Shown here: positions 7,175-31,945 of the stretch, piece after piece
How the letters are laid out: each line of letters starts with the position of its first letter
Numbering within the stretch: position 1 is the stretch's first letter
Assembly: GCA_963781755.1 (NCBI GenBank)
Contig: CAWAGZ010000008.1
Span: forward strand, 16,153-80,152
From: an uncultured Acidobacteriota bacterium
GTDB taxonomy: Bacteria; Acidobacteriota; Thermoanaerobaculia; Multivoradales; JAGPDF01
DNA: 64,000 nucleotides
Direction: 5' to 3'
Program-made: the position numbers and the translations under genes
Notes under the pieces: model-generated
Databases searched by the model: none
What the model saw: the letters and a program-made list of their open reading frames with translations, nothing else
What the model was told of the DNA's origin: nothing

Positions 7175-7177
7175 CGT

Positions 7178-11164: not shown

Positions 11165-11232
11165 CCCCCCGACCGAGGGAGGGCGTCGGTGCGGCGACGG
11201 GCGGACCGCCGCCGCACCGGCGAGCCCGAGGA

Positions 11233-12294: not shown

Positions 12295-12540
12295 GACTCT
12301 CCTCCTCCGATGTGAGGTCGAAATCCGGGGGTTCGCGTCGGCCGCCGCCGTCGGGCGCGCGGCCGTCGTCGGATCGGGAGAGACACTAGGCCGGACGCGC
12401 GATCGGCGCGGCGACACCCGAGTGACAGGCCTGCGACACGCGGACGCGCCGCCTCTCCGCTCGCCGGGTCCGGAGACCCGGCGGAAGGCTTGGTGCGGGA
12501 GTCAGCCCCTGGCGGTGGACGCCGCGCCGTTGTCGTCGCT

Positions 12541-12805
12541 GACAAGACTTTCTGATGAAGGGAAAGACCTGCGGGAAGATCGCTTCGGGTCCGGAGCCGG
12601 CGGCCGGAGCCCGCGCTCCTCCCTGGAAAGACCTTCTGTTGAAGGGAAAGGAACCCGGGATCGTTGCCTCGGAGCCCGCGGCGGGGCCAGTGCCCGAGGC
12701 CTTCCGCTCCTGGAGAACAGCGATCGGACCTGGCTTCGCGGCCTGCGGTGCCGGCCCCGGTTCCTAGCCGTTCCGATCGATGGAAGCTTCTACTTCGTCT
12801 CTTCT
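12541..12805. repeat. cluster of partial copies of the TGAAGGGAAAG(G)ACC / GGAAGCTTCT intergenic repeat family (copies at ~12553-12569, ~12636-12654, ~12775-12800)
   Basis: Seen directly in the 557-bp gap between the phoR-like 3' end and the porin 5' end. Confidence 0.5.
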
Positions 12806-14621: not shown

Positions 14622-14699
14622 CGGGGCGGGCGGCGCAGTGTAGCAGCGCCGCGACGGGGCTCCGCGCGGGCTCCGGGCATTCTCCGCAGCGGGTGCGGA

Positions 14700-14790
14700 A
14701 AAGCTTGTCGAAAACCGGTTCCGGAAGCCGCCGGCGCGCGCTCGGCGTGGGTCCCGCGCGCGTTCTGCACCCATTCTTGTGCAGGCGACG
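14700..14790 (-). promoter_or_regulatory. conserved promoter block upstream of phoR: TGCGGAAAAG ... GGGTCCCG ... GCGTTcTGCACcCATTCTTGTGCA (palindrome TGCACC-N6-TGTGCA at ~14766-14783)
   Basis: Near-identical block (24/26 in the core) upstream of the phoB-like gene at 30485-30570. Confidence 0.55.
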
Positions 14791-14950: not shown

Positions 14951-16582
14951 TCAGCGCGGGCGTCGCCGCGAGCGCTCGAGGCCGGGCCGGTACTCGATCC
15001 GGCGGCCGAACACCTTCTCGAACAGGTCCGAGCGGTGGCGCGCCGCGTCCAGCTCGAGCGTGACCTGGTAGGGGGAGAGCACCTCCACCACCACCCGCCG
15101 GCGCCGGGCCAGCGAAGCGTAGAGCTCGACCACGCGCGCGGCGTGCGTCCGGTCGAGCGCGTTGGCGATGCGCAGCAGCGCGCCGAGCGCGAGCACCACC
15201 TGGCGCTGCCAGGGCTCGAGCGCGGCGAAGTCCTCGTGCCGCCCCTTGGGCAGGGCGCCGCGGTGATAGCGGGCCACGTTGGCGACGACCTCGATCTCGC
15301 GCGGATCGAAGGCGTCGAGCTCGGCGCTCGAGATCAGGTAGAGAGAGTGCTTGTGATGGCGTTGGAAGTGGATCGAGTAGCCGACGTCGTGGAGCAGCGC
15401 GGCGTACTCGAGCCACTCGCGCTCGCGGGAGCCGAGGTTGTGAACGGGAGCGGTCAGGTCGAACAGCCTCACCGCGAGCTTCGCCACCTGGCGGGCGTGC
15501 CCGGCGATCGAAGGCGCCCGCTGCGCCAGCTCGGAGACCTGGCGACGACGGACGTTGGCCGGCGTCGCACCGTCGCCCGCGGGGGCGCCCAGGGCTTCGA
15601 GCAGCAGACCCTCGCGCAAGGCCCGGTCGCACAGGTGGAGCCGTTCGACTCCGGCGTGGCGGGCGAGCTCCTCGAGCAGGATCGCGCCAGCCAGGATCGA
15701 ACCGGCGCGCCGGGGACCGACCGCCGGCAGCGCCGCGATCTGGCGGCGCCGGAGCGCGCGCAGCCGCTCCACGACCTCGCCCAGCTCGCGCAGCCGGAGC
15801 TCGCGCAGGCCGCCTGCGGCCAGCCGGCGGTCCCGCCCCGCGAAATGGTCGGCCAGGTCGCCGCAGCACATCGCGGTCCCCGAGGTCGCGATCAGTCGCT
15901 CGACCCGCGCCGGCGCCCGCAGCGAAGAGATCGTCGCCCGGAGCTTGCGGCGCAGACGGTCGATCGAGGCGGTCGCCGGCGGGTCGCCGTCGAGAGCGCC
16001 GGCGCAGCGCAACGACCCCAGGCGAAGGCTGCGCACCGCGCGCAGCTTGCCGGCGCGCGCGGTGCACCACTCGGTCGAGCCGCCGCCGACGTCGACCAGC
16101 ACCGACCAGCCCCTCCCCAGGTCGACCGCGTGCCGCACGGCGCGGAAGACCAGCGCGCCCTCTTCGTTGCCGGTCAGCTTGCGCACCTCGACCCCGGTCA
16201 GGGCGCGGACCTGGTCGAGGAACTCGGAGCCGTTCGACGCCTCCCGGACGGCGCTCGTCGCGACCGCTTCGATCCGGAGGGCGCCCTTGAGCCGGGCCAG
16301 CGTGGTCATCCGCAGCAGCGCCTCGAGGCCGTCGCGCACGGCGCGTTGGGAGAGCGATCCGTGCGCCAGCGCGCTCTTGCCCAGCCGCACCATCTCGCGC
16401 TCGCGGGCGAGGACGCGATAGGCGCCGGCGCCGTCCCCCTCGGCGACGATCATGTGGATCGAGTTGGACCCGATGTCGATCGCCGCCACCCGCTCGCCGT
16501 CGGTCGCGGCGGCCGGAACGGCAGGCGCGGCGCTCCGGGTCGCCCCGGACCCCGACACGGTGCGGGCAGCGCGCTCTCTCAT
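14951..16582 (-). CDS. ppx: exopolyphosphatase / guanosine pentaphosphate phosphohydrolase (Ppx/GppA) with C-terminal HD domain
   Basis: N-terminal VAAIDIGSNSIHMIV, Ppx-GppA fold; HD-like LLHDVGYSIHFQRHHKH. Confidence 0.9.
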   Translation of the reverse strand: MRERAARTVSGSGATRSAAPAVPAAATDGERVAAIDIGSNSIHMIVAEGDGAGAYRVLAREREMVRLGKSALAHGSLSQRAVRDGLEALLRMTTLARLKGALRIEAVATSAVREASNGSEFLDQVRALTGVEVRKLTGNEEGALVFRAVRHAVDLGRGWSVLVDVGGGSTEWCTARAGKLRAVRSLRLGSLRCAGALDGDPPATASIDRLRRKLRATISSLRAPARVERLIATSGTAMCCGDLADHFAGRDRRLAAGGLRELRLRELGEVVERLRALRRRQIAALPAVGPRRAGSILAGAILLEELARHAGVERLHLCDRALREGLLLEALGAPAGDGATPANVRRRQVSELAQRAPSIAGHARQVAKLAVRLFDLTAPVHNLGSREREWLEYAALLHDVGYSIHFQRHHKHSLYLISSAELDAFDPREIEVVANVARYHRGALPKGRHEDFAALEPWQRQVVLALGALLRIANALDRTHAARVVELYASLARRRRVVVEVLSPYQVTLELDAARHRSDLFEKVFGRRIEYRPGLERSRRRPR

Positions 16583-16630: not shown

Positions 16631-17623
16631 TCAGGCGCCGCCGGCGAGAAAGGTGACGACGTAGTACGCCAGGGCCGAGACCAGGCCGGCGATCGGAATG
16701 GTCAGGATCCAGGCCCAGACGATGCGGCCGGCGATCCCCCAGCGCACCGCCGAGAGGCGGCGGGTGGCGCCGACGCCCATGATCGCGCCGGTGATCGTGT
16801 GGGTGGTCGAGACCGGGATGCCGCCCAGGGTGGCGCCGATGATGGTCAGGGCGCCCGCCGTCTCGGCGCAGAAGCCGCCGATCGGGTGCAGCTTGGTGAT
16901 CTTCGTGCCCATCGTGCGGACGATCCTCCAGCCGCCGAACAGCGTGCCCATGGCGATCGCGAAGTGCGACAGGAGGATGACCCAGATCGGGACCTCGAAC
17001 CGCTCGAGATACCCGGTGGCCACGAGCAGGCCGGTGATGATGCCCATCGTCTTCTGGGCGTCGTTGCCGCCGTGGCCGAGACTGTAGAAAGCGGCCGAGA
17101 CCAGCTGTCCCTTGCGGAAGAAGCGGTCGATCCGGCCCGGGTGCCAGTGGCGGAAGATCCAGGTCACGGTGATCATCAGGATCAAGCCCAGGACCAGCCC
17201 GAGCACCGGCGCGACGACGATGAACACCAACGGCTTGATCCAGCCGGAGACCAGGATCGCCCCGAAGCCGGCCTTGGCGATCGCGGCCCCGGCGTAGCCG
17301 CCGACCAGGGCGTGGGACGACGACACCGGGATGCCGTAGTACCAGGTGAAGAGGTCCCAGAGGATCGCGCCGATCAGGCCGGCGAGGATGACCTGCTGGG
17401 TGACCAACGACAGGTCGATCATTCCCTTGCCCATCGTCTTGGCGACGTGCGTGCCGAGCACGAAGGCGGCCAGGAAGTTGAAGAACGCGGCCCAGGCGAC
17501 GGCCAGGCGCGGCGACAGCACCCGGGTCGAGACCACCGTCGCGATCGAGTTCGCGGCGTCGTGGAAGCCGTTGAGGAAGTCGAAGACCAGCGCGACGAGG
17601 ATGATGCCGACGAGCCAGGTCAT
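16631..17623 (-). CDS. pit: low-affinity inorganic phosphate transporter (PiT/PHO4 family)
   Basis: MTWLVGIILVALVFDFLNGFHDAANSIATVVSTRVL (GFHDxANS signature), polytopic membrane protein. Confidence 0.9.
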   Translation of the reverse strand: MTWLVGIILVALVFDFLNGFHDAANSIATVVSTRVLSPRLAVAWAAFFNFLAAFVLGTHVAKTMGKGMIDLSLVTQQVILAGLIGAILWDLFTWYYGIPVSSSHALVGGYAGAAIAKAGFGAILVSGWIKPLVFIVVAPVLGLVLGLILMITVTWIFRHWHPGRIDRFFRKGQLVSAAFYSLGHGGNDAQKTMGIITGLLVATGYLERFEVPIWVILLSHFAIAMGTLFGGWRIVRTMGTKITKLHPIGGFCAETAGALTIIGATLGGIPVSTTHTITGAIMGVGATRRLSAVRWGIAGRIVWAWILTIPIAGLVSALAYYVVTFLAGGA

Positions 17624-17639
17624 CGCTCGCGCCGCAGGG

Positions 17640-18293
17640 TCAGGCGTTCTTGATCACCACGTTGCCGAGGACGTGGGTGAAGTCCTTGCACTTGTCGCAG
17701 GCGTCCTCGAGGTCCTGGTAGATCTTGTTCCACTTCATGACCTCGAGCGCGTCCAGTCCGTTGTCCTTGCGGAACAGCGCGCCGAGCGAGGTCAGGTAGA
17801 GGGCATCGGCCTGATTCTCGAGGTCGGAGATGTGGACCATCCCCTCCTGGATCCGCTCCGCGTTGGACAGGTCCCAGATCAGGTGGGTGAGCTCCTCGAT
17901 CTGGCGGCAGAGGTCGCGCAGGATCTCGGCGAACCGGGTCAGCGGCTCCGGCGCGTCGCCGATCTCGAAGAGAACGATGAACTGGGCGATCCCCTCCAGG
18001 TAGTCGAGGGCGTCGTCGACGTCGACCGCGATGGCGCGGATGTCCTCGCGGTCGAAGGGCGTGATGAAAGTGGAGTTGAGCGCCTCGAAGATCCGGCGGG
18101 TGATCTTGTCGCCCTGGTGCTCGACGGCCTTGAGCTCGACCAGCTTGACCTTGCGCTCGGCGACGTCGCGCGCGCGGGCGATGGCCAGGAACAACTCGGC
18201 GGCTTTGACCAAGTTGGCCGAGGCCTGCTCGAGCAGCTCCCGGAAGCGGCCCTCGCGCGGGAGCAGGAAGCGGAGGATCGAAGCGAATCCCAT
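17640..18293 (-). CDS. DUF47/TIGR00153 PhoU-like phosphate-transport regulator, companion of Pit
   Basis: 217 aa, PhoU-like helical protein 17 nt upstream of pit; canonical DUF47-Pit pair. Confidence 0.85.
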   Translation of the reverse strand: MGFASILRFLLPREGRFRELLEQASANLVKAAELFLAIARARDVAERKVKLVELKAVEHQGDKITRRIFEALNSTFITPFDREDIRAIAVDVDDALDYLEGIAQFIVLFEIGDAPEPLTRFAEILRDLCRQIEELTHLIWDLSNAERIQEGMVHISDLENQADALYLTSLGALFRKDNGLDALEVMKWNKIYQDLEDACDKCKDFTHVLGNVVIKNA

Positions 18294-18468
18294 GGCTCGA
18301 ATGGCTCGGATCGGTCGGTTCGGAAGGTCGAAGACGGCGCGGGGAAACTAGCATCCCCGTCACACCTCCGTCACACCCCCCGAGGTGGGCCCCGGCGCGA
18401 GGGTGGGGCGCCGCCTGGTCGCGCCCTCGCAGCCCCGCTGCTGGCCCGGCTTGCATAGACTCTGCGAA

Positions 18469-20016: not shown

Positions 20017-22434
20017 TCAGGTGAGCGCGGCCACGGCCTCCGCTTCCGACTCGACCGAGACCGAGGCGGGCGGCGAGCCGAACAGTGCGCTCAGGAAGGC
20101 GTCCCAGCCCCGGTTCTCGGCGCTCCGGCGGGCGGCGCGGCCGAGCACGTGCCGCAACGTGTCGTCGTGCAGCAGCCGCGAGAGGGCGGCGGCCAGGGGC
20201 GCCGCCGCGGCCGCGTCCACCACCAGGCCCTCGCACCCGTCCTCGATCTGCTCGGCCGGCCCCCCCTCGCGGGCGACCACCACCGGCAACCCCGAGGCCA
20301 TGGCCTCGAGCACGGCGTTGCCGAAGGTCTCCGTGCGGCTGGGGAAGACGAACAGGTCGGCGGAGGCGTAGGCGGTCGCCAGCGCGTCGCCGCCGCGCAC
20401 GCCCGCGAAGGTCACCCCCGGACCCGACCGGCGCTCGAGGCCGTCGCGCGCGGGTCCGTCGCCCACCAACACCAGGCGCGCGCCGGGGTGGCTCTCGCGC
20501 GCCCGGGCGAAGGCGTCGAGCAGGACCTCGAGGTTCTTCTCGGGCGCCAGCCGGCCGACGTAGAGAGCGACCGGGCCGCCCTCGACGCCGAGCCCCGGGA
20601 AGTAGTCGCGCCTCCGGCGGTCGGGGTGGAAGCGGTCGGTGTCGACGCCGCGCGGCAGGTGCGCGAGGCGGCCCGGCTCGACGCCGAGCTCGAGCAGCTG
20701 CGCCCGCGAGCTGGCCGAGGAGACCCAGACCCGGTCCATCTGGCCATAGAACCACTTCAGGTAGCCGGCGGCGAAGCCGGCCAGCTTGACGCCGCCGCCC
20801 AGGGCGGCGACGTAGCGCGGGAAGTCGGTGTGGTGGATGCCCACCGCCGGCAGGTCCAGGAGTCGCGCGGCCGCCAGCGCGGCCAAGCCCACCGGTCCGG
20901 GGGTCGACACGACGATCTCGCCGATCTGCTCGCGCTCGACCCACTCGACCACCTCGAGCAGTGGCGGGAAGCTCAGGACGAGCTCCTCGTAGCGCGGCAC
21001 CGGCATCTGCCAGATCGGCGGGAAGTTCTCGAGCTCGAAGTCGGTGCGCGGTGTCGCTGGCAGGCAGGTGAGCACCGTCACCGGGAAGTCGCGCCGGCGG
21101 GCGAGCCCGGCCGCGGTCGCCACCGTGCGCGCGACGCCGTTGACATCGACCAGGGTGTCGGTGGCCCAGACCCGGCGCGGGCTCTTGGCGCGCAACGGCG
21201 CGAGCTCGGGGAAGGCGTCGGCCACCTCGCGGTGGAACGGCTCGTCCTTGTGCTGGAAGCGGAACGCCGCGAGATAGGGCGACGCGGCGACCAGCCCCGT
21301 GGCCAGCGTCGAGAGCGCCGGGAGCGCTGACAGCGGCCGCCCCGCTTCGAGCGCGGCGGCGCCGGCGTCGAGCGAGCGGGCGAGGGCCCGTTGCGCCAGC
21401 CGGGCCGAGCCCTCGAACACCGCCCTCTCCTCCTCCCGGGCCAGCGTGGGCTCCGCGGCCCGCCGCGTGCGAGCGACGATCGCGGCCAGCGGGCGCGGCG
21501 GACCGAAGCTGGGCAGGAAGGCGGCGAGAGCGCGCAGCGACTGGCTCCAGGCGCTGCCCTCCGGGTTGCGTGGATCGATCTCGCCCGCGGCCATTCGCCG
21601 CAGCAGAGCGGCGATCGGGTCGTTGCGCCAGCGCGAGCCGGCGAGAACCTTCTGACGGTAGTAGTCGTGCGCCAGCGCCTGGAAGGCGCGGGCGAGCTTG
21701 AGCGAGGAACCCACCTCGCCGCCCGGGGCGTGGTCGCCGGCGGCCAGACGCGCGAGGTACTCGGAAACCGTGGCGGCCGGCGGCGTCTCGGTCCAGGTCG
21801 TGCCGACGTAGAGGCCGCAGTGGTCGTCGCTGCCGCCGACGAAGCGCTTGATCCACGGCTCCGGTCCCGACGGCTCGAGGCCGTGGCGGTCGGCGAGCTC
21901 GGCGATGCGCAGCGGCGTCAGGGCGTCGACCACCGCGGAGAACAGGGTCGTGGCGCGCGGGTCCCGCGTGCCGTTGACCAGCTCGAAGGTGCGGAACAGG
22001 AGCAGGCAGCGCTCGAGCTGGCCCAGAGTGAGCCGGTCGTCGACGCGGAAGAGCGGGTGGGCCAGAGCGTGCGCGATGCCGCGCTCGCACAGGTAGGCGA
22101 CGAGCGCGTAGAGGTCGCGGCGCAGATCCTGGGTCTCGCGGTGCTCGGCTTCGGTGATTCCCCAGACCAGAACGTGGACCTCGGTCCCATCCTCGGGAAA
22201 CGCGGCGGTGATCTCGCACGACAGGAAGGTGCCGGGCAGGTGCGCGATCTCGAGACCGCCGTCGATCGAATCGTGATCAGTGACGGTGACGAAGTCCATG
22301 CCGCGAGCGCGCGCGATGCGCACGATGTCGAGTGTCTCGGTGAAGCTCTCGGGCGCTCCGATGCGCTCCAGGTACCACTCGCTGGGTCGGTCGGAGCGGC
22401 GGCTGTGGACATGCAGGTCGCAGCGGCTCGGCAT
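20017..22434 (-). CDS. fusion protein: N-terminal PHP (polymerase/histidinol-phosphatase-type metal-dependent phosphoesterase) domain, ~300-aa central region of unknown function, C-terminal GT4 (group 1) glycosyltransferase
   Basis: N-term MPSRCDLHVHSRRSD...VTVTDHDSIDG (PHP His/Asp metal ligands). C-term EX7E-type GT4 motif (FPSRTETFGNAVLEAMASGLPVVV). 805 aa. Confidence 0.8.
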   Translation of the reverse strand: MPSRCDLHVHSRRSDRPSEWYLERIGAPESFTETLDIVRIARARGMDFVTVTDHDSIDGGLEIAHLPGTFLSCEITAAFPEDGTEVHVLVWGITEAEHRETQDLRRDLYALVAYLCERGIAHALAHPLFRVDDRLTLGQLERCLLLFRTFELVNGTRDPRATTLFSAVVDALTPLRIAELADRHGLEPSGPEPWIKRFVGGSDDHCGLYVGTTWTETPPAATVSEYLARLAAGDHAPGGEVGSSLKLARAFQALAHDYYRQKVLAGSRWRNDPIAALLRRMAAGEIDPRNPEGSAWSQSLRALAAFLPSFGPPRPLAAIVARTRRAAEPTLAREEERAVFEGSARLAQRALARSLDAGAAALEAGRPLSALPALSTLATGLVAASPYLAAFRFQHKDEPFHREVADAFPELAPLRAKSPRRVWATDTLVDVNGVARTVATAAGLARRRDFPVTVLTCLPATPRTDFELENFPPIWQMPVPRYEELVLSFPPLLEVVEWVEREQIGEIVVSTPGPVGLAALAAARLLDLPAVGIHHTDFPRYVAALGGGVKLAGFAAGYLKWFYGQMDRVWVSSASSRAQLLELGVEPGRLAHLPRGVDTDRFHPDRRRRDYFPGLGVEGGPVALYVGRLAPEKNLEVLLDAFARARESHPGARLVLVGDGPARDGLERRSGPGVTFAGVRGGDALATAYASADLFVFPSRTETFGNAVLEAMASGLPVVVAREGGPAEQIEDGCEGLVVDAAAAAPLAAALSRLLHDDTLRHVLGRAARRSAENRGWDAFLSALFGSPPASVSVESEAEAVAALT

Positions 22435-22659
22435 CGGTCTCGTCTCCTCGCGGCAGCGGGCCGGAGCCCGGACGGTTCTTCCCGGCGAGCGGCGGACAGC
22501 TGGCCTCCACGCCGGGCCGGGAACACGCTAGGCGCCCGGTGCGGCGGCGGCGTCACCGACGCGCGGCGCCGGGGCGACGTTCGCGAGCTGGCGCGTACCG
22601 TCACCGGCTCGTCGATGCGCCGCCACCGCCCGGTCGGCACCGGGCGATAGAACGCGTCC

Positions 22660-24130
22660 ATGGAGACTCCGACCGCGGTACTCGAGCTCGGCCCTCTGCG
22701 CTGCCTGTCCCTGAATCTGCGACGGCTCGAGAGGTGGCTTTCGGCGCGCGGCGCTGCGCGGCGTCCTCGCACTGTCGGGCGGCGCGGTCCGCGTCGAGGG
22801 CGCGGACCGGCTCGCGGCGGCGCCGGAGCCGTCGATCTTCGCCCTGACCCACCACAACGTCTGGGAGGCGCTGCTCGCGCCCGCGGCGTTGATGGCGGCG
22901 CGCCGCGGCCGCCCGGTCCGGTTCCTCATCGACTGGATGTTCGTCGACCTGCCGTGGACTGGGTGGCTCCTGCGTCGCTTCGCGCCGATACCGGTCTACG
23001 CCAAGCCCGCACGCTTCCGGCTACGCGAGCGCCATCGCCGCGAGCGGCGGCGCGATTCGGCGTTCGACGCCGCGGTGGCGGCGCTCGGCGAGGGTCAGGA
23101 CGTCGGCCTCTATCCGGAGGGACGGCGCAATCCGGATCCCTGGTTGCTCGGCGCGCCGCGCCGCGGCCTGGCGCGCCTGGCGTTGCGCGCGGGCGCGCCG
23201 GTCGTGCCGATCGGCATCGACTTTCCCGCCCGCGACCGGCTCCAGCGCACCCCCCGAGCCGGCCGTCTCGTGCTGCGCGTCGGCGAGCCGCTTTCGTTCG
23301 GGGCGGAGCACGCGGCCTGGCGGGACGCGCCTTCGGGAGGAGAGCGGCGCCGGGTCGAGAAGCGGCTGGGGCCCGAGATCGCCGACCGGGTCCACGAAGA
23401 GCTGGCGCGCCTCGCGCGCAAGGTCTACGTCCGCAGAAGCCGGCCGGAGAAGGAGGCCACGGTGGCGGGGGCGGCGATCGAGAGCGGGCTGTCGGTGGCG
23501 AAGGTCCTGGATCCGGCGATGCGCGAGGCCGCGCTGGGCGTGATCGCGGAGGTCTACGGCGAGGAGAAGCGCTGGCTGGCGGACGCGGCGCCGGAGATCC
23601 CGGTCGATCCGACGGCGGACTCCAGAGTCAGCTGGTTCCTCGCCCGTTCGGCGGGCGAGCCGGTGGGCGTCGTGCGCCTGTCCTACGATCCGCCGCTCGA
23701 GCTGCCGCGGGACTTCGAAGTCGAGATCGACTCCGGGATCGATCTCGAGCGGCTGGCCGCGGGCGGCCGGTTCGTCGAGGTCGGCAGGCTCATGATCCGC
23801 TCGAGCTGGCGCTCGCGTCCGGCGGCCGTCCTGGCGCTGATGCGGTCGGCGCTCGCCGAGGTCGTCGGGCGGGGCTACACCCACCTGTTCACGGCGGTGT
23901 TCGAGGACGACCCGCATTCGCCCTATCGATTTCACACCCGTCAATTGGGTTTCGAGCGCGTCGGCACCCATCGCCACGGCGAGTTGGAATGCGAGAGCCG
24001 CAGGATCCTGCTCGTGCTCGACCTGGCGCGCGCCTGGCGCCGTCTGAGGGCGCGCCGGGCGGCAGTGGTCGGTCACCTGGCGCGCGGTCTCGAGGAGCGA
24101 CTCGAAGGGCTCGCGGTCGCTTCATCGTGA
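22660..24130 (+). CDS. bifunctional acyltransferase (N-terminal PlsC/LPLAT-like O-acyltransferase with HHNVWE box, C-terminal GNAT/OlsB-like N-acyltransferase; OlsF-like). N-terminus unresolved (apparent frameshift or non-canonical start).
   Basis: ORF track calls 22889..24130 (TTG start). The LPLAT domain (LRGVLALSGGAVRVEGADRLAAAPEPSIFALTHHNVWEALL, then EGRRNPD, PVVPIGI) continues upstream in the same frame to ~22715 with no ATG/GTG/TTG. An ATG at 22660 opens a different frame (METPTAVLELGPLRCLSLNLRRLERWLS) that would join with a 1-nt indel near 22740. C-terminal domain carries an OlsB-like VGVVRLSY box. Confidence 0.65.
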
Positions 24131-24206
24131 CGCCGCCGACGCGCCGAGTTGACGCCCGAGGCGCAAGCTCTGGACGCGGCGGAGAAGCGTCCGGAGGCCG
24201 GCGACC

Positions 24207-24743
24207 ATGAACCTCGACACCAGAACCCTCGGACCCCGGCTGCAGGAGCTGGAGGTCGGGCTCTGCCAGCGCGCCGTCCGCATCCAGGAGCGCCGCGCGG
24301 TCCTGGCTTTCTTCCGCACGGTCTCGCGCCTCGGCGACGGCGGGCTCTGGATCGCGTTGGCGGGTTTGCTGGCGGTCGTCGGCGGCGAGCGGACGCTGGC
24401 GACGGTGGCGCGGATGGCGGCGGTCGGCCTGGCTTCGACGGTCGCGAGCAAGCTGCTCAAGAGGTGGGCGTGCCGGCCGCGGCCGTGCACCGTCGCGGCG
24501 GGCATTGCGGCCGGCGCGGCGCCGCTCGATCCCTGGAGCTTCCCCTCGGGCCACACCCTCCACGCGGTGGCCTTCACCGCGGTCGTGGGCGCCGAGCTGC
24601 CGACGCTCGCCCTGCTGCTGTTGCCGTTCACCCTCGCCGTCGCCGCGTCGCGCGTCGTCCTCGGCCTGCACTATCCGAGCGACGTCGCGGCGGGCGCCGC
24701 GATCGGACTGGCTCTCGCCGGCGCGGTCCTGGCTTTCTCGTGA
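24207..24743 (+). CDS. PAP2 superfamily phosphatase (phosphatidic-acid / lipid-phosphate phosphatase type)
   Basis: All three PAP2 motifs: KLLKRWACRPRP (KxxxxxxRP), PSGHT, SRVVLGLHYPSDV (SRxxxxxHxxxD). Membrane protein, 178 aa. Confidence 0.85.
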   Translation: MNLDTRTLGPRLQELEVGLCQRAVRIQERRAVLAFFRTVSRLGDGGLWIALAGLLAVVGGERTLATVARMAAVGLASTVASKLLKRWACRPRPCTVAAGIAAGAAPLDPWSFPSGHTLHAVAFTAVVGAELPTLALLLLPFTLAVAASRVVLGLHYPSDVAAGAAIGLALAGAVLAFS

Positions 24744-25981
24744 ACCCGCGCGTCCTCTTCCTCTCCGACGTCTACTTCCCGCGCGTCAACGGCGTCTCGA
24801 CGTCGATCGGTGTCTTCCGCCGCGAGCTGGCGGCCCACGGCGTCGAGGTCGAGCTGATCGCGCCGGCCTACGGCCGTACCGCCGGTGATGGAGAGGAGGC
24901 GGGGATCACGCGGGTGCCGGGGCGGAGCTTGCCGTTCGACCCCGAGGACCGGCTGGTCGCGGCGCGGCGCATGACCCGGGCGGCCGCGGCCCTGGAGTTC
25001 GACCTGGTCCACGTCCAGACCCCTTTCGCGGCCCACCGCGCGGGAGTCCACCTGGCCCGGCTCCGGCGGGTGCCGTTGGTCGAGACCTGGCACACCGACT
25101 TCGAGCACTACTTCGAGCACTACGTGCGCTGGGTCCCGGCGCCGCTCGCCCGCGCGCTGGCGCGGACCCTGGCGCGCCGCGTCGCCCGGCGGGTGGACCT
25201 GCTCGTCGTGCCCTCGGCGGCGATCGACCGCGCCCTGGCCGCGATCGGCGTCGCGACCCCGCGCGCCGTGATCCCGACCGGGCTCGCTCCGGGCGAGCTC
25301 GGCGCGGGGGACGGCGCGCGCTTCCGCGCCGCCCACGGCATCCCGGCCGACCGCAAGGTGGCGGTCCACGTCGGCCGCGTCGCGCGCGAGAAGAACATCG
25401 GCTTCCTGCTCGAGGCCGCAGACCGGGCGCGCCGCGAGATCCCCGACCTCTTGCTGGTCGTCGCCGGCGAGGGACCGGCGCGCAGCGAGCTCGAGCGGCG
25501 CGCCCGGGAGCTCGGGCTGGGATCGAACGTCTTGTTCGTCGGTTACCTCGGTCGTTGCGGCGAGCTCGCCGACTGCTATTGCGCCGGCGACTGCTTCGTC
25601 TTCGCCTCGCGGACCGAGACCCAGGGCCTCGTGCTGCTCGAGGCGATGTCGCTCGGGGTACCGGTCGTGGCGCTCGCCGAGCAGGGGACGGTGGACCTGC
25701 TCGTGGCGCGGCGCGGCGCCCTGGTGCCGGCAGCGGAGCCCGGCGACTTCGCCGCCGCGATCGTCCGCCTGCTGCGTGACCCCGCGCTCGCCTCCCGCCT
25801 CGGGCGCGAGGGACGCGAGGTCGCGGCGGAGTGGTCGGCGCCGGCGCTCGCCGGCCGTCTGGCGGCCCGCTACCGGGAGCTGCTCCCGGCACCGCTAGGG
25901 GCCGGAGAGGGTGTGGTGGGCGCGCCGGGCGCCGCGGTGGCAGGCGAGCTCCGTCACGTCGCCGTCACCGCCCGGGACTAG
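24740..25981 (+). CDS. GT4 (group 1) glycosyltransferase
   Basis: GTG start at ~24740 overlapping the PAP2 stop (GTGA). VNPRVLFLSDVYFPRVNGV N-terminal GT-B fold; EX7E-like FASRTETQGLVLLEAMSLGVPVVA. The long ORF-track N-terminal extension (from 24149) overlaps PAP2 and is rejected. Confidence 0.85.
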   Translation: MNPRVLFLSDVYFPRVNGVSTSIGVFRRELAAHGVEVELIAPAYGRTAGDGEEAGITRVPGRSLPFDPEDRLVAARRMTRAAAALEFDLVHVQTPFAAHRAGVHLARLRRVPLVETWHTDFEHYFEHYVRWVPAPLARALARTLARRVARRVDLLVVPSAAIDRALAAIGVATPRAVIPTGLAPGELGAGDGARFRAAHGIPADRKVAVHVGRVAREKNIGFLLEAADRARREIPDLLLVVAGEGPARSELERRARELGLGSNVLFVGYLGRCGELADCYCAGDCFVFASRTETQGLVLLEAMSLGVPVVALAEQGTVDLLVARRGALVPAAEPGDFAAAIVRLLRDPALASRLGREGREVAAEWSAPALAGRLAARYRELLPAPLGAGEGVVGAPGAAVAGELRHVAVTARD

Positions 25982-25993: not shown

Positions 25994-28207
25994 ATGACGT
26001 CCGAGACGACGGCCCTCGGGGGCCCGGCCGGGGAAGTTGGAGCATCCGCCCGCGAGCCCGGCGGCGCCGCGGCGGACGGTGGTCCGGGGGCCGGCGCGGA
26101 ATCGCCGTTCTTCGACCGCGAGCTGTCCTGGCTCGAGTTCAACCGGCGCGTGCTCCACCAGGCCGAGGACGACTCCCTGCCGCTGCTCGAGCGGCTGAAG
26201 TTCGTCGCCATCTTCGGCGGCAACCTCGACGAGTTCTTCATGAAGCGGGTGGGGGGCCTCAAGCTGCAGCTGCTGTCCGGCCGTTCGACCCGGTCGCCGG
26301 AGGGCCGCACCCCGGCCGAGCAGCTCGACGCTGTCGCCGCGGCGGTGCGGCCGCTGGCCGACCGCGCCCGGGAGGTGCTGGTCGGCGACCTGCTCCCCCT
26401 GCTGCGGCAGCGGGGCGTCGAGCTGGTGAGCTGGCGCGAGCTGGGACCCGAGGAGCGTCGCTGGGCGCGCGATTACTTTCTGCGCACGGTCTTCCCCATC
26501 CTGACGCCTCTCGGTCTCGACACCTCGCACCCCTTCCCGTTCATCTCCAACCTGTCGCTGTCGCTGGCGGTCGCGATCCGCAGCCCGGCGTCGAGCGAGG
26601 TGCGGTTCGCGCGCGTCAAGGTCCCGCCGTCGCTGCCGCGCTGGGTCCAGCTGCCGGAGGGCAACCGGTTCCTGGCGCTCGAGGACCTCATCGCGCAGCA
26701 TCTGGAGAAGCTCTTCCCCGGTCTCGAGCTGCTCGAGACCTACGCCTTCCGGGTCACCCGGGCGGCCGACGTCGAGCGTCACGAGGAGCCGGCCGAGGAC
26801 CTGCTCGAGTCGATCCAGGAGGAGCTGCGCGAGCGCCGCTTCGCCGCGGTGGTGCGGCTGGAGGTGGTGCCCGAGATGCCGGCGTGGATGCGCGCCCTGC
26901 TCGCCGACGAGCTCGAGATCGAGGCCACCGATCTCTACGAGACCCGGCCGCCCCTGGCCGCCCGAGACCTGTTCCAGCTCGCCGCGTTGCCCGTGCCGGG
27001 TCTCGTCGAGCCGCCCTGGCAGTCGGTGACGCACCCGCGCCTGGCGCCGGGCGCCGACGGGCGCGAGCCCGACCTGTTCCGCGTCCTGCGCGGAGGGGAT
27101 CTCCTGGTCCACCATCCCTACGACTCGTTCACGAACTCCGTCCAGAGGTTCCTCCAGGTGGCGGCAGAGGACCCGGCGGTACTCGCCATCAAGCAGACCC
27201 TGTACCGGACCTCGCGCAGCTCGCCCGTGGTGCGGGCGCTGATCGAGGCGGCCGAGCGCGGCAAGCAGGTGGCCGTGCTCGTCGAGCTGCGGGCGAGCTT
27301 CGACGAGGCGCGCAACATCGAGTGGGCCGAGGCGCTGGAGCAGGCGGGAGCTCACGTGGCCTACGGCGTGGTCGGGTACAAGACGCACGCCAAGGTCTCG
27401 CTCGTGGTGCGTCAGGAGAGCGACGGACTGCGCGCCTACAGCCACTTGGCGACCGGCAACTACAACACCGACACGGCGGAGCTCTACACCGACATCGGGC
27501 TGTTCACCTGCGATCCGGAGATCGGCGACGACAACGCCCAGCTGTTCAATCTCCTGACCTCCGGCCACCTCGCGGACCAGAGCTTCTCGAAGATGCTGGT
27601 CGCGCCGGTCAACATGCGCCGCGGGATCCTCGAGCGCATCCAGCGCGAGATCGAGCACGTCCGGGCCGGCAGGGGCGGACGCATCCAGGCCAAGATGAAC
27701 GCCCTGGAGGACGCGGAGATCGTCCTCGCGCTCTACGACGCGTCGGCCGCCGGAGTCGAGATCGACCTGCTGGTGCGCGGCGTCTGCCGGCTGCGCCCTG
27801 GGCTGGCCGGGCGGAGCGAGAACGTCCGGGTGATCTCGATCGTGGGCCGCTTCCTCGAGCACGCGCGGATCACCTGCTTCGGCAACGGCGGCGAGCCCGA
27901 GTACTTCATCGGATCGGCGGACTGGATGTCGCGCAACCTCGATCGCCGGGTCGAGGCGATGGTTCCCGTCAACGCGCCGCCGCTGCGCCGCGAGCTGCAG
28001 GAGATCCTCGACCTCCAGCTGGCCGACAACCGCAACGCCTGGGAGCTCGGGCCGGACGGCTCCTGGCGGCGCAAGCTCCCGGCTCCGGGCGAGCCCGAGT
28101 GCGCCAGCCAGCGAGTCCTGATGGAGCGGTCGCGCGCCCGCGTCGCCCGCGTCGAACGCTTCCCGGCCCCTGGCGACGAAACGCCCGGCGGGTCGCCCGT
28201 GCGCTAG
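25994..28207 (+). CDS. ppk: polyphosphate kinase 1
   Basis: 737 aa; N-domain FFDRELSWLEFNRRVL, PLD-like HKD motifs (GYKTHAKVSLVV, …), full PPK1 architecture. Confidence 0.95.
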   Translation: MTSETTALGGPAGEVGASAREPGGAAADGGPGAGAESPFFDRELSWLEFNRRVLHQAEDDSLPLLERLKFVAIFGGNLDEFFMKRVGGLKLQLLSGRSTRSPEGRTPAEQLDAVAAAVRPLADRAREVLVGDLLPLLRQRGVELVSWRELGPEERRWARDYFLRTVFPILTPLGLDTSHPFPFISNLSLSLAVAIRSPASSEVRFARVKVPPSLPRWVQLPEGNRFLALEDLIAQHLEKLFPGLELLETYAFRVTRAADVERHEEPAEDLLESIQEELRERRFAAVVRLEVVPEMPAWMRALLADELEIEATDLYETRPPLAARDLFQLAALPVPGLVEPPWQSVTHPRLAPGADGREPDLFRVLRGGDLLVHHPYDSFTNSVQRFLQVAAEDPAVLAIKQTLYRTSRSSPVVRALIEAAERGKQVAVLVELRASFDEARNIEWAEALEQAGAHVAYGVVGYKTHAKVSLVVRQESDGLRAYSHLATGNYNTDTAELYTDIGLFTCDPEIGDDNAQLFNLLTSGHLADQSFSKMLVAPVNMRRGILERIQREIEHVRAGRGGRIQAKMNALEDAEIVLALYDASAAGVEIDLLVRGVCRLRPGLAGRSENVRVISIVGRFLEHARITCFGNGGEPEYFIGSADWMSRNLDRRVEAMVPVNAPPLRRELQEILDLQLADNRNAWELGPDGSWRRKLPAPGEPECASQRVLMERSRARVARVERFPAPGDETPGGSPVR

Positions 28208-29223
28208 CCGGCAGCCTCGCCGGACTGGCCGGCCACGGCGAGAGCGTCCACCAGTCCGGCGATTCCGGACTCGAGCGCCGCCGCCTCCGGGGCCTCCTCG
28301 GCCAGCCAGCGTTCCGCGAACTCGGCGGCGAGCCGGTCGCGGCGTTCGGCGATCCGGCGCGCCAGCGCCGAGCGGCCGGCGCGACCGCCGGGCAGCCGCG
28401 GCCGTCGGCTCCCCCCCGTGGCGGCCAGAACCCGGCTGCGCTCGCCCTCCGCGGCCTCGGCCGCGAGCTCGGCGGCGAGCACCGCGAGATCGTTGGCGGC
28501 GCCGAGCAGGTCCTGGAGATGGCGCAGCCGCGCGACCACGGCGCGGGCGGCCGGCAGCCGCGGCGTCACCGGCTCGAGCAGGTAGCGCAGTCGCTTGGCC
28601 GCGATGCGGACGCGGTGGATCCGGACCGGCTCCGGGGACTCCCGCGCGAGGTCCAACGCGGCGAGCAGCGCGTCGGCGTGGCGGGCGAGCTGGGCGCCCA
28701 GGGCGGCGCGGAACGGACGCTCGGGCTCGGTCTCTCCGTCGAGGCGGATCTCGACCCGCCAGATGCCGAGCGTCTCGCGCAACCCCGCGATCAGCCCGTC
28801 GAGCTCGCCCAGCCTCTGCTCGCGGACGTGACGGTAGACCTGTTCGCGGCGGTCGCTCAGCCGGCCGGCGAGGACGCCGGCCGCACGGCGCTCGCTGCCC
28901 TCGGCGCCGTCGGCGAGCTGGGCGAGCAGAGCCGCGCCCACCTCGGCGTCGCGCCCGGGGTTGGTCGCCGCCGCCAGGCGGCGCACCCGGCGCCGGAGCT
29001 TGCGTCCCACGGCGTCGCCGAGCTCGGGGCGGAAGGCGCGCAGGTCGCTGCGCAGGCGGCGCAGGGCCACCCGAAGGTCGTGCAGAGCCTCCGGGTCCCC
29101 GCCGCGCTCGAGCGCGAGCCGGGCCTGCTCGGCCCGCGCGACCTCGGCGAGCGCGATCCGGCGCGCCGCCTCGCCCGCCGGACGCTCGAGTAGATCGCGC
29201 GGCAGCGCGGGCTCGCGGATCAC
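28204..29223 (-). CDS. CHAD domain protein (conserved histidine alpha-helical domain; polyphosphate-associated)
   Basis: Repeated HDLRVALRRLR / HRVRIAAKRLRY CHAD signatures; 3' end overlaps ppk1 3' end by 4 nt (convergent). Confidence 0.8.
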   Translation of the reverse strand: MIREPALPRDLLERPAGEAARRIALAEVARAEQARLALERGGDPEALHDLRVALRRLRSDLRAFRPELGDAVGRKLRRRVRRLAAATNPGRDAEVGAALLAQLADGAEGSERRAAGVLAGRLSDRREQVYRHVREQRLGELDGLIAGLRETLGIWRVEIRLDGETEPERPFRAALGAQLARHADALLAALDLARESPEPVRIHRVRIAAKRLRYLLEPVTPRLPAARAVVARLRHLQDLLGAANDLAVLAAELAAEAAEGERSRVLAATGGSRRPRLPGGRAGRSALARRIAERRDRLAAEFAERWLAEEAPEAAALESGIAGLVDALAVAGQSGEAAG

Positions 29224-29720
29224 GGCGCGAGGTCCCGCGCCTGACCGGCGGTCAGGTGCCAGAGGAGACGTCCGCCCCCGGCCCGGATCGAAGTCCGGAA
29301 ATCGACCAACGCGGCGCCGCCCTTGCGCATCGCCGCGATCGACTGCGCCCGGCCGGTGACCATCAGTCCTTCGAGCCGGGAGAGCCCGGGCTCGTGGCCG
29401 ACCAGCGCGATCGCGGCGAGCTCCCGGCGTTCGGCAAGGAAGCGCAGCAAGGGCGCGCCGCCGCCGCCGGGCGCGAGCGCCCCGAGATCGACGATCTCGG
29501 GATGGCGGGGGTGGGCGTCGCGCAGGAGCTCCGCGGTCTGCCGGGCGCGACGCAGGGGACTCGTCGCGATCAACGCCAGCCCCGGAACGTGAGCCGAGAG
29601 CCCGCGGGCGCCGCGTCGGAAGCGACGCTTGCCCTCGGGCGTCAACGGCCGGGCCCGGTCGTCGTCGGGAGAGGCGCCGCGCTCCGCGGCGATGGCATGA
29701 CGCACCAACAGCACGCGCAC
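29220..29720 (-). CDS. histidine-phosphatase superfamily protein, SixA-like phosphohistidine phosphatase
   Basis: LVRHAIA (RHG-type motif), PLTPEG, GHEP; 166 aa; 4-nt overlap with CHAD gene. Confidence 0.75.
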   Translation of the reverse strand: MRVLLVRHAIAAERGASPDDDRARPLTPEGKRRFRRGARGLSAHVPGLALIATSPLRRARQTAELLRDAHPRHPEIVDLGALAPGGGGAPLLRFLAERRELAAIALVGHEPGLSRLEGLMVTGRAQSIAAMRKGGAALVDFRTSIRAGGGRLLWHLTAGQARDLAP

Positions 29721-29760
29721 GGCGCGCGACGCTAGCAGAGAGGTGTGACGGTTCGCGGCG

Positions 29761-30441
29761 TCAGGCGCGCAGGCGGTAGCCGACGCCGATCACGGTCTCG
29801 ATCCGGTCGGCTTCGGCGCCGAGCTTGCGGCGCAGCCGGCGCACGTGGGTGTCCACCGTCCGACTGTCGACGTCCTCGGCGTATCCCCACACGTCCGAGA
29901 GCAGCCGCGAGCGGGTCTGGACGCGTCCCTGCCGTTCGAGCAGGACCTTGAGCAGGCGGAACTCGGTCGCCGTCAGGGTGACCTCCTTGCCCCGCGCCTC
30001 GACCCGGTGCGCCGATGCGTCGAGCCGGAGGCCACCCGCCTCGATCACGTCGCCGGCGTCCTCTCCGGCGTGACGGCGCAGGACCGCCTTGATCCGGAGC
30101 ACGACTTCGCGTGGGCTGAACGGCTTCGGGATGTAGTCGTCGGCGCCCAGTTCGAGTCCCACGATGCGGTCGACCTCCTCGCCCTTGGCGGTGAGCATGA
30201 CCAGGGGGACCCGGGCGGTCGCCGGGTCGCGCTTGAGCAGGCGGGTGAGCTCGAGACCGTCCAGGCCCGGGAGCATCAGATCGAGCACGATGAGGTCGGG
30301 CGGCTGGCGCCGGATGGCCTCCAGGGCGCCGTCGCCGCGACGCAGGACCTCGACCCCGAAGCCCGCCTTCTCGAGGTTGAACTGCAGCACTTCGGCGATG
30401 TCGGGCTCGTCCTCGACGACGTAGATCCGCTGTTCGGCCAT
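29761..30441 (-). CDS. phoB: OmpR/PhoB-family two-component response regulator (PhoB-like)
   Basis: REC domain (VVEDEPDI…DLIVLDLMLPGLDG…K) plus winged-helix trans_reg_C (…RTVDTHVRRLRRKL…GVGYRL); 226 aa. Confidence 0.85.
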   Translation of the reverse strand: MAEQRIYVVEDEPDIAEVLQFNLEKAGFGVEVLRRGDGALEAIRRQPPDLIVLDLMLPGLDGLELTRLLKRDPATARVPLVMLTAKGEEVDRIVGLELGADDYIPKPFSPREVVLRIKAVLRRHAGEDAGDVIEAGGLRLDASAHRVEARGKEVTLTATEFRLLKVLLERQGRVQTRSRLLSDVWGYAEDVDSRTVDTHVRRLRRKLGAEADRIETVIGVGYRLRA

Positions 30442-30484
30442 GCGCAGCGGACGCTAGCACGGGCCTTCCGCAGGCCATGCGGAA

Positions 30485-30570
30485 ATGTCTGCGGAAAAGG
30501 ATCCTCCACCGGGGTCCCGGTGCCCGTCTCGGCGGGCTTTGGAGCGTTTTGCACACATTCTTGTGCATCG
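30485..30570 (-). promoter_or_regulatory. conserved promoter block upstream of the phoB-like operon: TGCGGAAAAG ... GGGGTCCCGG ... GCGTTtTGCACaCATTCTTGTGCA (palindrome TGCACA-N6-TGTGCA at ~30550-30567)
   Basis: Same block as upstream of phoR (14700-14790); ~110 bp upstream of the phoB-like start. Confidence 0.55.
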
Positions 30571-30778
30571 AAGGCAACTCCATGGTGCTCAACGCGTTAC
30601 GCTCAAGTCCGTGGACCGATTGAAGAAAGCGCTGCGCAACCGGGCACCACTTTTCCACAGCGACCGGTGACGGGCCGGTAACGGCGGCCGTAAATCTTTG
30701 CAACGCTTCGTCTTGACAGCCCGAGCGGGCGGCGGTTACCGTCCCGTCAGTGGTCCCCGGACCGGCGGAGGCTGGAGC

Positions 30779-31096
30779 ATGACGATGACGACGCTCGCGA
30801 CGATCCGCTCGTATCTGATCTTCACCGGCACCGGTCCGATCCTCGTGCTGTCGACCTATCCCGAGCTGCGCGACCCGCGGCTGCTCGCCAAGCTCCAGTA
30901 CAAGGGCATCTCGAAGTTCATCGCCTACGAGGTCGCGCTCGACGCGGTCAAGAACCGCTACGAGCACGCCTACGGCAACATCGCGCACGATCTCGACGAG
31001 GTCGAGGACATCCGCGTGCTCGACTTCAACGGCCACCAGATCATGGCCAACTTCTCGCTCGACGAGCTCGGCGACCCGATCAAGTTCGGCGGCTGA
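30779..31096 (+). CDS. hypothetical small protein (105 aa), no recognised domain
   Basis: ATG at ~30779 preceded by GGAGG; N-terminal hydrophobic stretch; ORF-track frame 30698..31096. Confidence 0.4.
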   Translation: MTMTTLATIRSYLIFTGTGPILVLSTYPELRDPRLLAKLQYKGISKFIAYEVALDAVKNRYEHAYGNIAHDLDEVEDIRVLDFNGHQIMANFSLDELGDPIKFGG

Positions 31097-31177
31097 CCGC
31101 CGCCGGGTGCTGGCGGCACTCCGCGCGAACCCGCGGCGCATCGCGATCCACGGTCTCGCAGGCTCGCAGCAGCGACT

Positions 31178-31275
31178 TCCATTGAAGAGAAGACCTCGGG
31201 TCCAGGCCCGCGCCGCGAGACTCGAGGCGCCGTTCCGGCTGCGGTCCTTTCCATCATTGGAAGCTTCTGTCTCTC
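31178..31275. repeat. ~95-bp structured intergenic repeat (copy 2): arms TGAAGAGAAGACC / GGTCCTTTCCATCA + TTGGAAGCTTCTGTC tail
   Basis: Collinear with the copy at 6124-6218; sits between convergent 3' ends (hypothetical + / maf -). Confidence 0.6.
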
Positions 31276-31306
31276 TCGGCACGAAGGCGCGATCCGCTTG
31301 GCGGAC

Positions 31307-31945
31307 TCAGGTTGCGCGGCTCGATCTCCGCCGGCCCCGTCCGGGGCCGGCGGCCGAAAAGCCCATCTCGGCCAGCAGCTGCCCGACCAGCGTGAGCGGC
31401 AGGCCGACGACGTTGTCGTAGTCCCCGTCGACGTGGTCGACGAAGGCGGCGGCGCCGCCCTGGATGGCGTAGGCGCCGGCCTTGTCGAGCGGCTCCCGAC
31501 CGGCTGCGTAGGCCGCGATCTCCTTTGCGCCGAGGCGGCGGAATGTGACCTCGGTGCGGCAGGCGCGGGCGAGCTCGCGGGCGACGGTGCCCGGGGCGCC
31601 GGACCGGACGACGGCGACGCCGGTCCAGACGTCGTGGCGGCGGCCCGAGAGCCGGTGCAGCATCCGCTCGGCCTCGGCCGCGTCGGCCGGCTTGCCGAGC
31701 AGCTCGCCGTCGACGGCGACCACCGTGTCGGCGCCGATCACGATCTCGCCGGTCCGGGCCGCGGCGATCGCCTTGGCGCGGGCCAGACGCAGGGCGAGAC
31801 GCTCGGGCGGTTCACCGGCTCGCGGAGTCTCGTCGGCGTCCACCGGGCGGACCTCGAACTCGAGGCCGAGTCGGAGGAGCAGGTCGCGCCGGCGGGGCGA
31901 CGCCGAGGCCAGGACGAGCCGCGGCGGACCGGGACTTCCGCTCAC
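31307..31945 (-). CDS. maf: Maf-like nucleoside triphosphate pyrophosphatase (septum formation protein Maf)
   Basis: GTG start (VSGSPGPPRLVLASASPRRRDLL…); Maf signature LASASPRR; start overlaps the stop of the upstream VWA gene (GTGA). Confidence 0.85.
   Translation of the reverse strand: MSGSPGPPRLVLASASPRRRDLLLRLGLEFEVRPVDADETPRAGEPPERLALRLARAKAIAAARTGEIVIGADTVVAVDGELLGKPADAAEAERMLHRLSGRRHDVWTGVAVVRSGAPGTVARELARACRTEVTFRRLGAKEIAAYAAGREPLDKAGAYAIQGGAAAFVDHVDGDYDNVVGLPLTLVGQLLAEMGFSAAGPGRGRRRSSRAT

Follow-up and report, generated by a model that had tools for sequence, protein, structure and literature searches.

A phosphate island of an uncultured Acidobacteriota bacterium, lying at 6 to 31 kb of the 64-kb stretch of contig CAWAGZ010000008.1 to which our analysis applies (the window, with a G+C content of ~72%), carries the gene of a PhoB-like response regulator (RR) directly followed by those of a SixA-type histidine phosphatase and a CHAD-domain protein. 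This order is kept in all the close relatives that we found, and the gene of the PhoR-like kinase is located after ppx, in a different part of the island. Such a split of the Pho two-component system, with phoB before sixA-CHAD and phoR after ppx, is the clade-specific feature of the locus. The SixA-CHAD pair itself is a known and widespread accessory pair of polyphosphate (polyP) gene clusters. We think it probable that the locus represents a known type of phosphate/polyP island which was rearranged in this clade, forming a phosphate-starvation unit that joins the regulator with polyP accessory proteins. The closest named relatives of the window's proteins belong to Thermoanaerobaculia (Acidobacteriota).

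The phoB-sixA-CHAD genes and their conservation

The argument concerns the following genes, and the first four exist exactly where an earlier note on this DNA had placed them:

29761-30441, minus strand: phoB-like OmpR-family RR, 226 amino acids (Response_reg and Trans_reg_C of Pfam; TIGR02154)
29220-29720, minus strand: SixA-type histidine phosphatase, 166 amino acids (His_Phos_1; TIGR00249)
28204-29223, minus strand: CHAD-domain protein, 339 amino acids (PF05235)
25994-28207, plus strand: ppk1 (NF003921; all four PPK domains)
12852-14774, minus strand, probable true start at 14621: phoR-like histidine kinase, HAMP-PAS-HisKA-HATPase (Pfam, NCBIfam)

The genes phoB, sixA and CHAD lie head-to-tail on the minus strand. 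Between the stop codon of phoB and the GTG start of sixA the sequence reads 40 nt (29721-29760), and not the 41 bp given before. The 4-nt overlap claimed for sixA and CHAD is the GTGA at 29220-29223, where the stop of the former overlaps the start of the latter. CHAD and ppk1 are convergent and do overlap at the 3'-end of ppk1, as had been noted, since their stop codons share the palindromic CTAG at 28204-28207. A scan of 27900-31400 for sigma-70 promoters and intrinsic terminators found nothing, and the absence of a terminator-like site there was counted in favour of phoB-sixA-CHAD as one unit, which we infer to be co-transcribed.

Regarding the regulator, its top NCBIfam model, the best among 103 matching families, was TIGR02154 PhoB, with 267.5 bits against an equivalog cut-off of 296.2 bits. 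The acceptor residues E10/D11, D54, T84 and K106 could be read from the translation. The CHAD protein scored 112.8 bits with PF05235 (gathering score 25.6), and, in a comparison with CHAD structures from work on polyP binding, its sequence matches the crystal structures 6QV5 (E=2e-9), 6QV7/6QVA and 3E0S (E ~7e-9); it is predicted to be a polyP-binding protein of the phosin type. The ppk1 product reached 959 bits with NF003921 and has the catalytic His in KTHAK.

The SixA-like protein scored 30.2 bits with His_Phos_1 (Pfam cut-off 21.7), its sole Pfam match, and no Nudix domain was found in its 166 residues. The best model was TIGR00249 sixA, which matched over the full length (1-155 of 154) with 60.7 bits, below the equivalog cut-off of 74.5. 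The catalytic residues R7, H8, R58 and H109 (in GHEP) are invariant across 60 homologs. An AlphaFold2 model with a pLDDT (predicted local distance difference test) of 96.2 had as top fold matches Nostoc Alr0221 (3F2I; template modelling score, TM, 0.84-0.87) and E. coli SixA (1UJB; TM 0.83/0.88), followed by other SixA entries and then by C-terminal domains of MutT1, whereas the larger small-molecule histidine phosphatases aligned less completely (TMt ~0.55-0.6). Fold and catalytic residues support a SixA-type identity: by its minimal fold of ~160 amino acids the protein is to be classed as SixA-type rather than as a generic phosphoglycerate mutase (PGM)-type enzyme.

Close relatives were found by exact-protein look-ups (n=5; SixA identity 57-87%; Thermoanaerobaculia-like), and a metagenome scan with a single SixA protein gave, among the matches listed, relatives at 48% identity or less. 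In 5/5 close relatives the order RR>SixA>CHAD is present with the identical 4-nt overlap. The order is beyond chance, since it is kept in every one of them down to 57% SixA identity. In these relatives ppk1 is convergent, and one has a beta-helix gene inserted between CHAD and ppk1. A compact relative, L004, reads RR>SixA>CHAD>ppk1<ppx>kinase>, with ppx adjacent and the order of ppx and the histidine kinase kept. The earlier note had named a generic PGM-type enzyme and a lack of conserved synteny as outcomes that would speak against its proposal of a phosphatase input into Pho signalling; we found a SixA-type fold and a conserved gene order.

The earlier observation that phoR is far from phoB also holds, as the only PhoR-like kinase of the window lies 15 kb from phoB and the RR is thus not encoded with its partner. 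The top models of this kinase were PnpS (364 bits) and phoR_proteo (319 bits), both just under cut-off, and it is the probable partner of the RR: the hidden Markov models (HMMs) made in this analysis detect a single OmpR-type RR and a single PhoR-like kinase across the 64 kb. The probable start of the kinase, MSIPYS, is located 15 nt past the element TGCTACACT described below.

Two further observations concern this region. In the long-contig assemblies of the relatives L165 and L001, ppk1 and the RR gene were called as several fragments, which look like frameshift errors of the assemblies and not real pseudogenes. Divergent from phoB there is a small gene (30779-31096, plus strand) for a protein of ~103-105 amino acids with no Pfam or NCBIfam match. 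It has ~1,479 homologs at 72-95% identity in Thermoanaerobaculia, Holophagales and other Acidobacteriota, and it is conserved far more strongly than its neighbours. We considered it as a member of the unit and rejected it, because in more distant genomes it is syntenic with Maf-VWA-VWA and not with phoB.

Upstream elements shared within the island

The upstream regions of phoB and phoR align over ~115 nt and form a paralogous module. This module, and a second set of repeats, consist of the following elements:

30640-30719, minus strand: conserved far-upstream block of phoB, which holds the 11-nt direct repeat CGTTACCGGCCCGTCAC (30667-30683)
30544-30567, minus strand: palindrome TGCACA-N6-TGTGCA, then AAACGC, upstream of phoB
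30467-30498, minus strand: block TTTTCCGCAGACATTTCCGCATGGCCTGCGGA, a 12-nt-period TTTCC direct repeat with hairpin arms TTCCGCA/TGCGGAA
30451-30459, minus strand: -10-like TGCTAGCGT, 9 nt before the phoB ATG
29729-29737, minus strand: -10-like TGCTAGCGT, 8 nt before the sixA GTG
14637-14783, minus strand: upstream module of phoR (palindrome 14760-14783, repeat block 14683-14714, TGCTACACT 14637-14645)
25952-25968, plus strand: direct repeat CGTCACGTCGCCGTCAC, 26 nt upstream of the ppk1 ATG, with CTAGACT after 9 nt
18358-18374, plus strand: direct repeat CGTCACACCTCCGTCAC, beside the -10-like TGCTAGTTT of the DUF47-pit-ppx operon; conserved in L165

The palindrome followed by AAACGC occurs twice in the window, upstream of phoB and of phoR (0 expected), and in five relatives its arms are invariant and its spacer is variable. 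The block TTTTCnnCAnnCnTTTCCGCAnnnnCTGCGGA, which follows the palindrome after 46 nt, also has only two copies in the window. The block TTTTCCGCAGACATTTCCGCATGGCCTGCGGA is restricted to the upstream regions of phoB and phoR (0 expected) and conserved in relatives, and the 12-nt-period TTTCC repeat as such is found three times, before phoB, phoR and the porin-like gene (0.69 expected). In L004 the whole module is present at both genes, as it precedes the kinase gene too. Shared elements of this kind at phoB and phoR are consistent with autoregulation, as in the comparison with E. coli. The -10-like element is kept before the RR gene and before sixA in L001, L004 and L166; its distance to the start codon is 9 nt for phoB and 15 nt for phoR.

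Furthermore, an 11-nt-period direct repeat, CGTYAC-N5-CGTYAC, has three perfect sites in the window against 0.02 expected, and they are those of ppk1, pit-ppx and phoB. The sites are kept at orthologous positions in four relatives, and in the other 160 loci that we compared the repeat is nearly absent (2 matches in 3.6 Mb, both strands). The arrangement of repeat and CTAGACT also occurs upstream of ppk1 in L001, L004 and L165. In genomes where the small divergent gene has no phoB beside it, the far-upstream block is missing ahead of that gene. That such a rare box is common to ppk1, pit-ppx and phoB argues for one regulon, although which factor goes with which motif is something that we can only infer.

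Several other elements were recorded or discarded. Sites of the form TGCTAnnnT are at 5590, 14645, 18353, 29737 and 30459 (minus strand), 42622 and 47577 (plus) and 47584 (minus), and even the looser TGnTAnnnT is rare (10 matches in 64 kb). Several TGCTAnnnT copies stand 7-16 nt before start codons that have no Shine-Dalgarno sequence, and their closeness to the starts suggests leaderless or very-short-leader transcripts in the host. Upstream of the porin-like gene, a 23-nt element, CTTTCCCTTCAnCAGAArGTCTT, has two copies at a spacing of 84 nt (12544-12566 and 12628-12650, minus strand), and its first 11 nt have a third copy at 6130-6140 (minus strand), downstream of pstB (zero copies expected); these sites may serve to control the porin-phoU-pst cluster. 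In L001, the divergent region of ppk1 and a GT4 gene (13380-13491) carries a CGTCAC-N5-CGTCAC repeat together with a TGCACA-N6-AGTGCA palindrome, so both types of motif also occur outside the promoters of phoB and phoR. An initial guess at a Pho box, GTYACCG-N4-GTYACCG, was not enriched (34 matches, 27 expected) and was replaced by the CGTYAC-N5-CGTYAC core. A long-range inverted repeat around the block far upstream of phoB, with arms at 30665-30682 and 30735-52, was also dismissed, since these arms are not compensated in relatives. Rfam models matched no family in the whole window.

The role of the SixA-CHAD pair

Beyond the close relatives, we surveyed 80 species-level genome loci of many phyla, at SixA identities of 30-46%, with HMMs from the window's own proteins. 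The profile for the genome scan was an 11-sequence SixA alignment, a 31-sequence alignment being too diverse. CHAD adjoins SixA on the same strand in 31 of the 80 loci, and PPX or PPK1 is found within 5 kb in 41. The commonest enzyme neighbour is PPX (within 3 kb of SixA in 36/80), followed by PPK1 (14/80), whereas an RR directly upstream of SixA on the same strand occurs in none of the 80, a kinase within 3 kb in four, and a PhoB-like RR within 1.5 kb, in any orientation, in eight. Both orders of the pair exist (CHAD>SixA 82, SixA>CHAD 19), and in 164 loci there was no protein fusing SixA with CHAD, PPX or PPK. The pairing of SixA with CHAD is thus no special trait of loci with a Pho regulator; the pair is a widespread accessory of polyP genes.

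Sulfolobus is not known to have two-component systems. Since the pair is linked to PPX/PPK and is present in Sulfolobus too, the conserved role would be polyP-related, and this distribution argues that the core job of SixA-CHAD is polyP turnover. In Sulfolobus, sixA and CHAD share a transcription unit with ppx and PPK3 (PMC12995831), and both proteins are typical associates of PPK1/PPK2 neighbourhoods (PMC12995831; also PMC10892726).

Some of the loci deserve a separate description. A Vicinamibacteria-type layout of Acidobacteriota, phoU<pstS<ppx<CHAD>SixA>RR<, has an orphan PhoB-like RR convergent to CHAD>SixA (L017, L023, L030, L044, L050, L064 and many metagenome loci among L089-L164), and in the same loci a canonical phoB-phoR pair follows a few kb off, past DUF47-pit. 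In a rough neighbour-joining tree these orphan paralogs form a separate clade, and the RR of the window falls among the kinase-paired and phoU-linked PhoBs. Of the distant genome loci, L005, from a Competibacteraceae metagenome-assembled genome, was the only one with two-component genes directly before SixA, in the order RR>kinase>SixA>PPX on one strand. In L002, a 7-Mb genome, two thymidylate-kinase-family genes (3877-8507) adjoin ppx and are divergent from CHAD-SixA, a layout that matches the one described for archaeal PPK3 (PMC12995831).

The mechanism that we propose would work as follows. Under phosphate limitation PhoR would phosphorylate PhoB, and PhoB~P would activate its own unit, and phoR as well, through the shared upstream module, so that the paralogous copies of this module would keep the split phoB and phoR co-regulated. 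Regulator, SixA-type phosphatase and CHAD protein would then increase jointly, and so would ppk1 and pit-ppx, which have the 11-nt direct-repeat box in common with phoB. The CHAD protein would bind polyP, and the SixA-type enzyme would work with it in polyP turnover, whether this raises or lowers polyP, most likely by dephosphorylating either a phosphohistidine intermediate of an enzyme or a phosphoanhydride substrate tied to PPX/PPK. An action on PhoR~P is possible by analogy and would be secondary.

This last action is the centre of another explanation, closer to the earlier proposal, in which the SixA-type enzyme would remove the phosphoryl group from the phosphohistidine of PhoR~P, or sequester PhoR; coming from a PhoB-activated unit, it would exert negative feedback, and CHAD may link it to the polyP stores. 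The place of sixA directly behind phoB in all five relatives and the intact RH…R…H residues in a SixA fold would fit it, and so would the orphan PhoB paralog beside CHAD>SixA in the second acidobacterial layout. In mycobacteria, the SixA-like domain of MutT1 uses its RHG motif to dephosphorylate the phosphate sensor SenX3, PhoR and other kinases, and it reduces RegX3~P (PMC12407098). Within 1.5 kb of SixA the density of PhoB-like RRs is also 2- to 4-fold higher than in the remaining parts of these loci; however, this enrichment is modest and to be expected in phosphate islands. Across the 80 genomes the pair tracks PPX/PPK and not RRs or kinases, the PhoR of this locus does not have an HPt domain, the classical type of SixA substrate, and MutT1 is distant (TM ~0.6-0.7, 20-23% identity) and carries a Nudix domain that is not found here. 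Together with the Sulfolobus pair, these points make us regard the feedback as rather unlikely. More doubtful still is a version in which CHAD tethers SixA to polyP and polyP occupancy releases or activates SixA toward PhoR~P, so that the size of the reserve would feed Pho signalling; the phoB-sixA-CHAD unit and the orphan PhoB paralog beside CHAD-SixA would be its genomic traces.

It is also conceivable, and in our opinion unlikely, that phoB and sixA-CHAD are separate transcription units, co-located after a rearrangement and adjacent without any functional coupling. There is a conserved -10-like element in the gap before sixA, the arrangement is known from one sub-clade only (other Thermoanaerobaculia and Holophagales keep the block of small gene, Maf and VWA genes without phoB-sixA-CHAD), and mixed phosphate islands with pst, phoBR, ppk, sixA and ppx have been described from other organisms (PMC10734472). 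Nevertheless, order, short gap and orientation have been kept through considerable divergence of SixA, no terminator-like site was found between the genes in the region scanned, and the rare box at ppk1, pit-ppx and phoB points to a common regulon. The least probable, and in our opinion very unlikely, is that the SixA-like protein acts on small molecules (a nucleotide, a sugar phosphate, short polyP or pyrophosphate) and not on protein phosphohistidine. The protein stays under the sixA equivalog cut-off, the substrates of the superfamily are diverse, and the matches of the fold search include alpha-ribazole phosphatase, phosphoserine phosphatase and RosC. The C-terminal domain of MutT1 also processes 8-oxo-GDP. 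However, the best matches in fold and sequence are minimal SixA proteins, which the larger enzymes do not approach in TM, and with 166 amino acids the protein does not have the substrate-capping insertions of PGM-type enzymes.

A number of points weigh against the rearranged island with a common phosphate-starvation unit, which we nevertheless prefer. The element TGCTAnnnT conserved 8 nt before sixA may give sixA-CHAD an internal promoter of its own. The pst cluster does not have the 11-nt repeat, so that either set of motifs is a candidate for the PhoB site. The module common to phoB and phoR could be leader RNA instead of operator DNA: hairpins are predicted in it, their pairs are conserved and nearly all invariant in 5 sequences, and covariation, for which these 5 sequences gave no support upstream of phoB, does not decide between the two because of this invariance. 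The count of a single RR and a single kinase covers the 64-kb window, and a second phoBR pair may exist elsewhere in the genome. RR, kinase and SixA-like protein are each under their NCBIfam equivalog cut-offs. Finally, the literature names no experimentally identified target of any SixA from a polyP cluster, and the pair also occurs with PPK3-type kinases (PMC12995831), so a phosphohistidine of PPK1 cannot be a universal target.

The island in comparison with known systems

On the minus strand the island has the order DUF47, Pit, ppx, PhoR-like kinase, porin-like gene, phoU and pstSCAB. Beyond this block there are two SDRs, a GT4, an acyltransferase with a FeeM domain, a PAP2 and a second GT4, and this lipid/glycosyl block leads into ppk1 (plus strand), after which CHAD, sixA and phoB follow (minus strand). 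The remaining features are:

16631-18293, minus strand: DUF47 (PhoU_div) and PHO4/Pit phosphate transporter, upstream of ppx
14951-16582, minus strand: ppx (Ppx/GppA family), directly upstream of phoR
11233-12417, minus strand: porin-like gene, signal-peptide-like N-terminus, C-terminal ...VYNF (Phe)
10398-11087, minus strand: phoU, above equivalog cut-off
9123-10397, minus strand: pstS, above equivalog cut-off
within the 6266-12417 cluster, minus strand: pstC
7178-8047, minus strand: pstA, read from sequence
6266-7174, minus strand: pstB, read from sequence, above equivalog cut-off
20017-22527, minus strand: GT4
22715-24130, plus strand: acyltransferase with FeeM
24153-24743, plus strand: PAP2
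24749-25981, plus strand: GT4

As the earlier note had said, phoU precedes pstS. Its porin is less certain, because the gene has the signal peptide and the C-terminal Phe that suit such a protein but no Pfam or NCBIfam match. Regarding the lipid/glycosyl genes, the three on the plus strand reach ppk1 with gaps of just 5-23 nt, and in the relative L165 PAP2 and a GT fragment also adjoin ppk1. The architecture of acyltransferase and FeeM resembles that of the bifunctional ornithine-lipid synthase OlsF, and an OlsF-like lipid block would fit a phosphate-sparing remodelling of membrane lipids.

The textbook phoBR/pstSCAB-phoU system of E. coli has its counterparts here, with a PhoB-like RR, a PhoR-like kinase, PstSCAB and PhoU all present. 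However, phoB and phoR belong here to different units, phoU comes before pstS and polyP genes are interleaved with signalling genes. Islands of marine HIMB59 bacteria (PMC10734472) also bring together pstSCAB-phoU, phoR-phoB, ppk, a phosphohistidine phosphatase, ppx and glycosyltransferase or lipid genes, but phoR-phoB stay paired in them, and neither CHAD nor a phoB-sixA unit has been described.

Among the polyP clusters, that of Sulfolobus acidocaldarius (saci_2017-2021, sixA-ppx-PPK3-CHAD; PMC12995831, PMC10892726) is alike in encoding SixA and CHAD beside polyP enzymes. The difference is that here a Pho RR heads the pair, ppx is 12.6 kb off together with phoR, and the adjoining kinase is the convergent PPK1. 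Streptomyces lividans has a CHAD phosin by ppk and a phosphohydrolase gene in the unit ppk-pptA(CHAD)-nudix, a Pho-regulon operon controlled by PhoR/PhoP, with overlapping stop/start codons and internal promoters (PMC8003754). It differs from the locus of the window in having a Nudix hydrolase instead of SixA, a co-directional ppk in first position and the regulator gene outside the operon.

Regarding SixA itself, the E. coli protein has the same minimal fold (1UJB, root-mean-square deviation 2.4 Å) and the same catalytic residues, but its identity is 25% and its gene has no linkage with polyP or Pho genes. The targets reported for it are the HPt domain of ArcB, NPr and Ndk (PMC12934123 and references therein), and from Ndk it removes the phosphoryl group of a phosphohistidine intermediate (PMC12934123). 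Mycobacterial MutT1, whose effect on the kinases mentioned above was reported in 2025, is likewise a SixA-fold phosphatase beside ppk1 (mutT1 and ppk1 have the consecutive locus tags Rv2985 and Rv2984) with a demonstrated effect on a phosphate-sensing two-component system; it is the one experimental precedent for a SixA-type input into phosphate signalling (PMC12407098). However, it is a distant Nudix-SixA fusion, has no CHAD partner and does not share an operon with the regulator.

SixA-type phosphatases thus occur in polyP gene clusters of archaea as well as bacteria, and the locus described here hints at cross-talk between polyP stores and phosphate signalling. With sixA directly behind phoB, and phoB and phoR split among polyP genes, it is a concrete system in which polyP enzymes and phosphate-sensing kinases can be discriminated as targets. 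If the SixA-type enzyme does not act on the kinase, the locus is one more layout of the phosphate island. If it does, the Pho response would be subject to feedback from the polyP stores.

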